DNA from: Escherichia coli
GTDB taxonomy: Bacteria > Pseudomonadota > Gammaproteobacteria > Enterobacterales > Enterobacteriaceae
DNA: 64,000 bases
Assembly: GCF_003334815.1 (NCBI RefSeq)
Contig: NZ_QOWO01000003.1
Strand: one strand, 5' to 3'
In this document: positions 58,168-61,556 of the stretch, piece by piece
How the letters are laid out: every line of letters starts with the position of its first letter
How positions within the stretch are numbered: position 1 is the first letter of the stretch
The notes under the pieces: generated by a model
Databases searched by the model: none
What the model saw: only the letters and a program-made list of their open reading frames with translations
What the model was told of the DNA's origin: nothing
Program-made: the position numbers and the translations under genes

Positions 58168-58192
58168 TTCGGCCTTAGCCTGATATAGTGTG

Positions 58193-58300
58193 CGTAGGCC
58201 GGATAAGGCGTTCACGCCGCATCCGGCATTTGAGCATAGTGCCTGATGCGACGCTTGATGCGTCTTATCAGGCCTACAGGTGCACCGCATCCGGCAAACC
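58193..58300. repeat. REP/BIME palindromic elements
   Basis: gtaggccggataaggcgttcacgccgcatccggca ... gcctgatgcgacgcttgatgcgtcttatcaggcctac ... gcatccggca. Confidence 0.7.
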
Positions 58301-58322
58301 ATACTCACATCAACAACGAAAA

Positions 58323-58968: not shown

Positions 58969-60321
58969 ATGGCACTTGCAATGAAAGTAATCTCTCAAGT
59001 TGAAGCGCAGCGCAAGATTCTGGAAGAAGCAGTTTCCACTGCGCTGGAGTTGGCCTCAGGCAAATCGGACGGTGCGGAAGTTGCCGTCAGCAAGACCACC
59101 GGCATTAGCGTAAGCACGCGTTATGGTGAAGTGGAGAATGTTGAATTCAATAGCGATGGCGCGCTGGGGATCACTGTTTATCACCAGAACCGCAAAGGTA
59201 GCGCATCATCCACCGATTTAAGCCCGCAGGCCATTGCCCGTACTGTACAGGCGGCGCTGGATATTGCCCGTTATACCTCGCCAGATCCCTGTGCCGGCGT
59301 GGCAGACAAAGAGCTGCTGGCCTTTGACGCACCAGATCTCGACTTGTTCCACCCTGCGGAAGTTTCCCCGGATGAAGCCATTGAACTGGCGGCCCGCGCA
59401 GAACAGGCGGCATTGCAGGCGGACAAACGCATCACCAATACCGAAGGTGGCAGCTTTAACAGCCACTACGGTGTCAAAGTTTTTGGCAACAGCCACGGCA
59501 TGTTGCAGGGTTACTGCTCAACGCGTCATTCGCTCTCCAGCTGTGTAATTGCCGAAGAAAATGGCGATATGGAGCGTGATTACGCCTACACCATTGGTCG
59601 TGCGATGAGCGATCTGCAAACGCCAGAGTGGGTTGGGGCCGACTGTGCTCGCCGTACTTTATCGCGCCTGTCACCGCGTAAACTCTCCACCATGAAAGCG
59701 CCGGTCATTTTTGCCAATGAAGTGGCAACCGGGCTTTTTGGCCATCTGGTGGGGGCGATAGCGGGTGGATCGGTTTACCGTAAATCCACCTTCCTGCTGG
59801 ATTCGCTGGGTAAACAAATTCTGCCGGACTGGCTGACCATTGAAGAGCATCCGCATCTGCTGAAAGGGCTGGCATCGACGCCATTTGACAGCGAAGGTGT
59901 GCGCACCGAGCGTCGCGATATTATTAAAGATGGCATCCTGACTCAGTGGCTGCTGACCAGCTACTCGGCGCGGAAACTGGGGCTGAAAAGCACCGGACAT
60001 GCGGGCGGTATTCACAACTGGCGGATTGCCGGACAAGGGCTAAGCTTCGAACAAATGCTCAAAGAGATGGGTACCGGGCTGGTGGTGACGGAGCTGATGG
60101 GCCAGGGCGTGAGTGCCATTACCGGTGATTATTCCCGTGGTGCAGCGGGCTTCTGGGTAGAGAATGGCGAAATTCAGTATCCGGTTAGCGAAATCACCAT
60201 CGCAGGTAATTTAAAAGATATGTGGCGCAATATTGTCACCGTCGGTAACGATATTGAAACACGCAGTAATATACAGTGTGGTTCTGTGCTGTTGCCGGAG
60301 ATGAAAATCGCCGGGCAGTAA
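58969..60321 (+). CDS. pmbA: metalloprotease PmbA/TldE
   Basis: 450 aa (alternative start four codons downstream possible). Confidence 0.9.
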
Positions 60322-60500
60322 AAAACTGGCGCGACCTGCCGCGCTATAAACTAAAAAATTACACAAAATCATTCGCACTGCATCGAGACGGAAAGTGAAT
60401 GAGGGCCGGGGAGCGTACTCGCAGTACGTGACCCGGGCGAATGAGCGTAGCCGTCGATGAGGCAGTGTGAAGGATGAAGTGTAAATAAAAAAGGAAGTGA

Positions 60501-60890
<390 letters not shown>

Positions 60891-60934
60891 TTCCTCATTT
60901 CCCTGTTGCCTGCACTCAGGTAACAGGGAACTTA

Positions 60935-61399
60935 TCATCGCAAATGATGCACCACCTGATTGCTGCTGCCGCGCCAGATCAGGGAAGGGTCTTTTAAATC
61001 CTGCACAAATTTGCCGTCGACCAGTACGTTAATCAAATCAACAACCTGCATTTGCGCAGCGTTGAGATCGTCGAGTTTATAGCCTGTCCACACCCAGATG
61101 TCTTTATCCGGACACTCGGCGCGGATGCGTTTTACCAGTTTCAGAATATCCGGCACGTTTTGCGGATGCAGCGGATCGCCGCCGGAGAGGGAAATCCCCT
61201 GGCGTTTGATACGAGTGTCATTCAGATCGTTAATGATCTGGTCTTCCATTGCTTTGGTAAATGGCTGACCAGAATTTACCCGCCATGTGCTTTTGTTATA
61301 GCAACCGGGGCATTCATGAACACACCCGGAGACAAACAGGGTGCAGCGAGTGCCGGGGCCGTTGACGATGTCGACAGGATAGTACTGATGATAATTCAT
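60935..61399 (-). CDS. nrdG: anaerobic ribonucleotide reductase activating protein (radical SAM)
   Basis: 154 aa with CxxxCxxC radical SAM cluster motif. Confidence 0.92.
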   Translation of the reverse strand: MNYHQYYPVDIVNGPGTRCTLFVSGCVHECPGCYNKSTWRVNSGQPFTKAMEDQIINDLNDTRIKRQGISLSGGDPLHPQNVPDILKLVKRIRAECPDKDIWVWTGYKLDDLNAAQMQVVDLINVLVDGKFVQDLKDPSLIWRGSSNQVVHHLR

Positions 61400-61404
61400 T
61401 ATTT

Positions 61405-61540
<136 letters not shown>

Positions 61541-61556
61541 TAACGTAGAGTGAAGA

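Follow-up and report, generated by a model that had tools for sequence, protein, structure and literature searches.

The structured element that lies between pmbA (tldE) and cybC in the window (the whole stretch of 64,000 nt, or 64 kb, of Escherichia coli DNA that we analysed) is very probably explained as a copy of the ERIC repeat at positions 60358–60485, the orthologue of the K-12 copy eco:18_ERIC, with a role in mRNA stability or processing that we infer. Judged by its sequence, the ERIC copy at this locus is one already known, having been catalogued in 2008 (PMC2267715); it carries no RefSeq annotation here. [quoted passage not shown]

The pmbA–cybC spacer spans 182 nt (60322–60503) and holds two structures, a short GC hairpin and the ERIC element, the latter starting 36 nt past the pmbA stop codon. 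The features of the region are:

58969–60321, + strand: pmbA (tldE), which precedes cybC on this strand (open reading frame and RefSeq annotation)

60327–60346, + strand: separate GC hairpin directly after the pmbA stop codon, outside ERIC (from the fold of the spacer)

60358–60485, + strand: ERIC (IRU/RU-1) element, 128 nt, in the Wilson & Sharp consensus orientation (nhmmer and published orthologue)

60359–60410, + strand: left hairpin arm (fold of the element alone and inverted repeats)

60413–60429, + strand: apical stem-loop GCGTACT-CGC-AGTACGT (fold and consensus alignment)

60432–60484, + strand: right hairpin arm, terminating in GAAGGATGAAGTGTAA (fold and alignment)

60486–60503, + strand: cybC leader with the Shine-Dalgarno region, unpaired in the minimum-energy fold, with AAGGAAG at 60491–60497

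60504–60890, + strand: cybC, intact, 128 aa, encoding cytochrome b562 with a signal peptide (RefSeq annotation of identical DNA)

The left arm opens with a degenerate terminal inverted repeat (TTACAC, against TATAC in the family) followed by AAAATCATTCGCACTGCATCGAGACGG, and the apical stem-loop aligns with the centre of the ERIC consensus, GAGCTTAC-ATAA-GTAAGT. The cybC leader starts right after the base of the hairpin, its AAGGAAG begins five unpaired bases further on, and its AATAAAAAAGGAAGTGAGCAATG is conserved across genera. The separate GC hairpin is kept in Escherichia and some Citrobacter. The original prediction, made from the window alone, had correctly described cybC as intact with its signal peptide, and had located the palindrome GTACT-CGC-AGTAC exactly, at 60415–60427 within the apical stem-loop. 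The palindrome is real; the range given for the whole structure, 60340–60470, needed correction, as the true span is 60358–60485. The proposed end omits the last 15 nt of the right arm, and the proposed range also takes in part of the separate GC hairpin at 60327–60346.

The assignment to ERIC comes from two sets of published sequences. An nhmmer profile built from the published 127-nt E. coli ERIC consensus and the Salmonella SeRU-1 (Delihas 2007, PMC2759123 Table 1a) matched 60360–60483 over model positions 3–125 of 127 (envelope 60358–60485, E = 9.8e-13), and this was its sole match in the 64-kb window. Petrillo et al. (2008; PMC2267715, Additional file 1) list 19 E. coli K-12 ERIC members as FASTA, and a second profile built from 18 of these, with the orthologue eco:18_ERIC left out, matched 60359–60485 over model positions 2–127 (E = 1.2e-20). 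In a global alignment the element is colinear with the 127-nt consensus with one 1-nt gap, at 66% identity (z = 10.3 against shuffles), compared with 50% identity to the reverse complement of the consensus. The left-out member eco:18_ERIC is itself an exact match to MG1655 between tldE and the cybC pseudogene (position 3850 of our MG1655 locus, L001); 2 of 128 bases separate it from the window copy.

This copy is among the two most diverged of the 19 K-12 members, its mean identity of 63% being tied with that of eco:14. Its termini are degenerate, reading ATTACAC...GTGTAAA in place of TATAC...GTATA, such that the repeat is still recognisable and the terminal TA has become AT at one end and AA at the other. 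The core has been rewritten (GAGGGCCGGGGAGCGTAC...GTACGTGACCCGGGCGAATGAG) yet its pairing is kept. Because the copy is so strongly diverged, several common searches passed over it: the ERIC1R and ERIC2 primers matched nowhere in the window even when 3 mismatches were allowed, blastn at word size 7 with the published ERIC consensus missed the element, and Rfam cmscan of 60000–61000 at E up to 10, a search that the original prediction had proposed, returned four chance-level matches and no ERIC. The only Rfam match that overlaps the element, sR30, scored 10.8 bits against a gathering score of 38. The primer mismatch, which taken by itself speaks against ERIC, reflects the divergence of this copy in its core.

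ERIC is a dispersed family, and the element behaves as a member of one. Using its 126-nt core as a blastn query, we found full-length relatives in all 5,426 of 5,426 complete E. coli genomes, at a median of 3 places in each; since these matches fall at several unrelated sites per genome, the element is a dispersed repeat. Paralogues lie at hsdM–hsdR (78–80% identical) and at puuR–puuC and rhlB–gppA (about 70–73%), and the puu, rhlB–gppA and hsd copies correspond to eco:9, eco:15 and eco:19 of PMC2267715. A four-copy consensus of the window element and these paralogues resembled ERIC. The original prediction had suggested a locus-specific attenuator, protein-binding site or small RNA; this suggestion gives way to a copy of a known, dispersed repeat family, ERIC/IRU, with the K-12 orthologue eco:18_ERIC and a profile match at the E-value given above.

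A repeat search recovered three nested inverted repeats in the element. The outermost pairs 60359–60384 with 60459–60484 (26 nt, 77% complementary), the second pairs 60406–60419 with 60423–60436 (14 nt, 79% complementary), and the third is the perfect 8-nt pair of TCATTCGC (60369–60376) and GCGAATGA (60437–60444). The last two blocks had been singled out from the start and are indeed 100% complementary, but they are unused in the minimum-energy fold, where the left arm pairs instead with 60467–60475. Another proposed complementary pair, gaatgagggccggg / cccgggcgaatgag, stands only in its CCGGG/CCCGG cores, and GAATGAG (60398–60404 and 60439–60445) is a direct repeat, not an inverted one. The broader expectation of an extended stem-loop was borne out, with folding well beyond chance in an element that adjoins the cybC ribosome-binding site on its upstream side. 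Folded as + strand RNA, the whole spacer (60322–60503) reaches −74.9 kcal/mol (z = −8.2, with none of 200 shuffles as good), compared with −53.4 kcal/mol (z = −4.4) for the − strand. The element alone (60358–60485) gives −63.8 kcal/mol (z = −9.0) on the + strand and −44.7 kcal/mol (z = −5.3) on the − strand. The folded ERIC consensus shows the same asymmetry (−61.8 against −45.2 kcal/mol) and has a bracket layout of stems and bulges identical to that of the window copy. The Wilson & Sharp orientation is 17–19 kcal/mol the more stable because many of its pairs are G-U. A shared stem-loop has previously been predicted for the E. coli ERIC family (PMC2267715).

The hairpin is also supported by covariation. 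We aligned 12 independent ERIC copies, including the window copy; they come from Escherichia, Citrobacter, Salmonella, Yersinia and Morganella. Paired cells make up 96.5% of the total, compared with 34–42% in slid controls, and both sides have changed in 12 of the 33 pairs; none of 500 shuffles came as high. In a palindromic mobile element, such covariation could reflect a need at the DNA level, for example transposase recognition, and not one of the RNA.

We scanned one genome per species for CybC and obtained 57 loci. All six Escherichia species representatives share the element, with neither its site nor its orientation differing among them; they are the E. coli-named strains SCPM-O-B-8794 and E69, two further Escherichia species, E. 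whittamii and E. albertii. As the element is common to all six, the insertion is older than the radiation of the genus. On this comparison of sequences, ERIC entered the pmbA–cybC spacer ahead of the split of the Escherichia species and has been passed down there since. Divergence in the element is 3.1–8.6%, against 11–26% at third codon positions of pmbA and cybC, such that the element evolves 2–7 times more slowly than third positions (Fisher p = 0.05 for one species and between 1e-6 and 2e-5 for the other five). The right arm is near-invariant among the species, with alignment columns 101–140 nearly all invariant. Where a single-base transition has hit a pair among the orthologues, the pair is retained on the + strand through G-U in eight of eight cases, and the three broken pairs are all transversions. 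The low divergence and the kept pairs point to purifying selection on the + strand RNA, in a sample that is small. The + strand is the one that would be transcribed together with pmbA and cybC.

Beyond Escherichia, most enterobacterial genera have an intact cybC behind a spacer of 30–86 nt that lacks the element and contains the conserved AATAATAAAAAGGAAGTGAGCAATG. Independent ERIC insertions occupy the same spacer in Citrobacter sp. Res13-Sevr-PEB04-36, Citrobacter sp. MGH106 and S. enterica subsp. diarizonae. These are oriented opposite to the Escherichia copy and overlap the pmbA stop codon (TAA|TACCC...):

L020:1033–1158, − strand: opposite-orientation ERIC insertion

L022:1039–1164, − strand: opposite-orientation ERIC insertion

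L025:1042–1166, − strand: opposite-orientation ERIC insertion

Several other Citrobacter (L016, L018, L019, L023, L029 and L032) have an ERIC remnant of ~45 nt with an internal deletion, and ERIC copies are also present in the Citrobacter, Salmonella, Yersinia and Morganella loci. Two further loci deserve mention in their own right. Citrobacter amalonaticus S646 (L014:1016–1200) has a 185-nt spacer without a full ERIC, in which a short piece resembling an ERIC end (TACCCGCTATACTTCGAAC...ATTATTCAGGGTAT) is followed by a different palindrome (AGAGCCCGGCCATCAGGC...GCCTGATGGCCTGGCTCT) that may belong to another repeat family. The 396-bp contig NZ_AEJF01000297.1 (L064), from an assembly of Caballeronia mineralivorans, holds an E. 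coli-type pmbA end, this same ERIC copy and a cybC start (98% protein identity); E. coli DNA has almost certainly contaminated the assembly.

Within E. coli, the site is polymorphic. About 1,550–1,650 of the 5,426 genomes (about 29–30%) are without the element and have a 54-nt spacer and an intact cybC. The length difference between the filled and the empty allele is exactly 128 bp, as would be expected for 126 + TA; the 13 nt left of the element match at 6 of 13 positions between the two, and no clean TA duplication can be read. For this comparison, window positions 60345–60357 and 60486–60503 were set against L005:523–576, L006:523–576 and L007:523–577, and the empty-allele sequence that corresponds to 60345–60485 is CAAATCTTCATAA. 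Aligned with the empty site of some Citrobacter, it agrees at 20 of 24 positions. From this Citrobacter-like sequence and the mismatch in the left flank, the empty allele looks ancestral in type and not like an excision product. An origin by deletion between two direct repeats, TAAAAAA at 60352 and at 60486, was also considered and rejected, as it would leave 48 nt of other sequence against the 54 nt observed. The notion that the two alleles sit on deeply diverged haplotypes is ruled out by near-identical flanks, the window and the empty strain UK_Dog_Liverpool differing at 6 of 490 and 0 of 360 bases (MAFFT). We regard as improbable, and offer as speculation, the thought that the filled and empty states do not reflect a simple gain or loss but a regulatory polymorphism of long standing; if so, very short recombination tracts would have kept the empty allele or brought it back in, and the two alleles might give the pmbA and cybC mRNA different fates.

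In K-12, cybC is a pseudogene owing to a 26-bp deletion (GTGAGCAATGCGTAAAAGCCTGTTAG) that takes the ATG, the codons right behind it and the last part of the Shine-Dalgarno region, as seen in MG1655 (L001:3989–4356) against window positions 60498–60523. K-12 retains the upstream ERIC copy, with 2 substitutions, despite its dead cybC. Taken together, the 29–30% of genomes with an empty site and an intact cybC and the dead cybC of K-12 indicate that any function of the element is dispensable or is not tied to cybC.

The alternative that survives best, although we consider it the less probable reading, is that this ERIC copy is a functionless relic, a selfish element sitting in a tolerant spacer with no effect on the expression of pmbA or cybC. 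The E. coli genomes with the empty 54-nt spacer and an intact cybC fit this well, as do the absence of the element from most other genera, its persistence beside the dead cybC of K-12, and its degenerate termini, which probably leave it immobile now. However, a neutral element as old as the genus should decay at the silent-site rate, and the orthologues in six Escherichia species diverge 2–7 times more slowly than third codon positions, with every transition at a paired position keeping the + strand RNA pair.

Scans of 60000–61000 detected neither a sigma-70-like promoter nor a + strand terminator, and the ideas that the element supplies a cybC promoter or terminates pmbA were dropped on these grounds. 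Given a spacer in which no promoter was found, and spacers of 30–86 nt in the other genera, too short to accommodate one, cybC is probably transcribed through the end of pmbA. In the mechanism that we propose, transcription of cybC would come from upstream through the pmbA end and the element would lie inside that transcript, which would fold into a 128-nt hairpin whose end falls just short of the cybC Shine-Dalgarno sequence, by a few bases, with the latter left free. The hairpin may then alter the stability or processing of the flanking mRNA, at the pmbA 3′ end or the cybC 5′ end, in an orientation-dependent manner, and could do so by blocking exonucleases or 5′-end-dependent decay. ERIC is reported to be co-transcribed with flanking genes and to shift, in an orientation-dependent way and via an RNase E site, how stable the upstream and downstream mRNA segments are relative to each other; that site has been reported in the right-hand repeat of ERIC, the experimental work being in Yersinia (PMC2229807, PMC10969869, PMC3184786). 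By this analogy, the element is likely an RNA hairpin in a pmbA–cybC transcript that would affect mRNA stability or processing. Since many E. coli lack the element, cybC is probably affected only modestly.

An action at the level of DNA, as a cruciform or a protein-binding palindrome rather than as RNA, appears improbable to us. A transposase site, a nucleoid-protein site or a barrier to transcription or replication would be the candidates, and terminal repeats are typical of the MITE ends that transposases recognise; both strands fold better than shuffles, and covariation is equally expected if DNA palindromy is what matters. The + strand RNA is ~19 kcal/mol more stable because many of its pairs are G-U, each of which would turn into an A-C mismatch in a cruciform or on the opposite strand, and the substitutions among orthologues preserve G-U pairs on that strand only. 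Apart from the terminal repeats, moreover, no DNA motif has been reported for ERIC (PMC2229807).

Still less probable is an intrinsic terminator, whether of pmbA or, on the − strand, one that shields pmbA from antisense transcription. The − strand does have a TTTTTT after the hairpin (the complement of 60353–60358), and the neighbouring GC hairpin at 60327–60346 is likewise followed by T6 on that strand, where alone the promoter and terminator scan called it terminator-like; Atlantibacter and Kluyvera have a genuine hairpin and T-run after pmbA at the equivalent place. However, the GC hairpin has no T-run on the + strand, the ERIC hairpin continues there with AATAAAAAAGG and no U tract, and the scan of 60000–61000 gave no terminator on that strand. 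Nor does a − strand gene enter the region; the hairpin at ~60900–60930 between cybC and nrdG already separates nrdDG from cybC. The latter hairpin (CCCTGTTGCC...GGTAACAGGG, 60895–60933) lies between the convergent cybC and nrdG and is probably a bidirectional terminator; it is also the source of a spurious weak Rfam match to mir-51.

Least credible of all is a cis-regulatory RNA specific to cybC (an attenuator or riboswitch-like leader) or a small RNA gene, although a highly stable structure, conserved in Escherichia, does directly precede the ribosome-binding site of cybC. The element is a dispersed repeat that also sits beside unrelated genes (hsd, puu, rhlB–gppA), has no Rfam match, lacks both a promoter-like site and a + strand terminator, leaves the Shine-Dalgarno sequence unsequestered in its fold, and is dispensed with in most genera and ~30% of E. 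coli, which have the same conserved Shine-Dalgarno sequence without it.

For annotation, the correct label stops an unannotated ERIC copy from being taken for a new riboswitch, attenuator or small RNA; beyond annotation, the finding matters little. The constraint across Escherichia nevertheless speaks against neutrality for at least some ERIC copies, and independent insertions facing the other way struck the same 30–80 nt spacer in Citrobacter and Salmonella. The filled and empty alleles that occur in nature provide a ready, isogenic-like pair for testing the effect of an ERIC hairpin on flanking mRNAs. A literature search for cybC together with ERIC, or for the pmbA–cybC intergenic region, found nothing relevant.

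Compared with the ERIC/IRU/RU-1 family at large, the window copy shows no categorical difference. It is 127–128 nt long, colinear with the consensus and folded as a single long imperfect hairpin with the same strand asymmetry; it is intergenic between two same-strand genes and has several dispersed copies per genome. It differs in degree, being diverged (66% to the consensus) with degenerate termini and a rewritten core, and the ERIC-PCR primers would not anneal to it. The family is reportedly treated in Sharples & Lloyd 1990, Hulton et al. 1991 and Wilson & Sharp 2006. The ERIC copies of Yersinia enterocolitica belong to the same family and are likewise co-oriented with their flanking genes, in a probable co-transcript and as an RNA hairpin; the RNase E-dependent effect on mRNA was shown there (De Gregorio et al. 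2005, summarised in PMC2229807, PMC10969869 and PMC3184786), whereas for pmbA–cybC we infer it. Correia/NEMIS of Neisseria, RUP and YPAL/RU-2 are also MITEs, of 100–170 bp, with terminal inverted repeats and TA termini (PMC2229807), and are co-transcribed as RNA hairpins that RNases cleave (PMC2229807 Table 1, PMC10969869). They are unrelated in sequence, and Correia can carry promoters and IHF sites and is cut by RNase III; such motifs are not known for ERIC, and our scan found none at the window element. REP/PU/BIME units share with the element an intergenic position, a palindromic nature and transcription, and are able to stabilise upstream mRNA. They are, however, GC-rich palindromes of 35–40 nt that are usually clustered, whereas the window element is single, 128 nt long, AT-rich at its termini and of another consensus. 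The original prediction was thus right to set it apart from REP/BIME, as its ERIC profile match also indicates. Elsewhere in the window, small-ORF translations (for example CRPDKTHQASH and MPDATLSRLIRPG) in the mpl–yjgA (58170–58320) and nrdG–nrdD (61400–61556) spacers look REP/BIME-type, which agrees with the mention of REP units elsewhere in the window in the original prediction. The published catalogue draws the same division, listing the pmbA–cybC locus in the ERIC file of PMC2267715 and keeping PU-BIME in a separate file.
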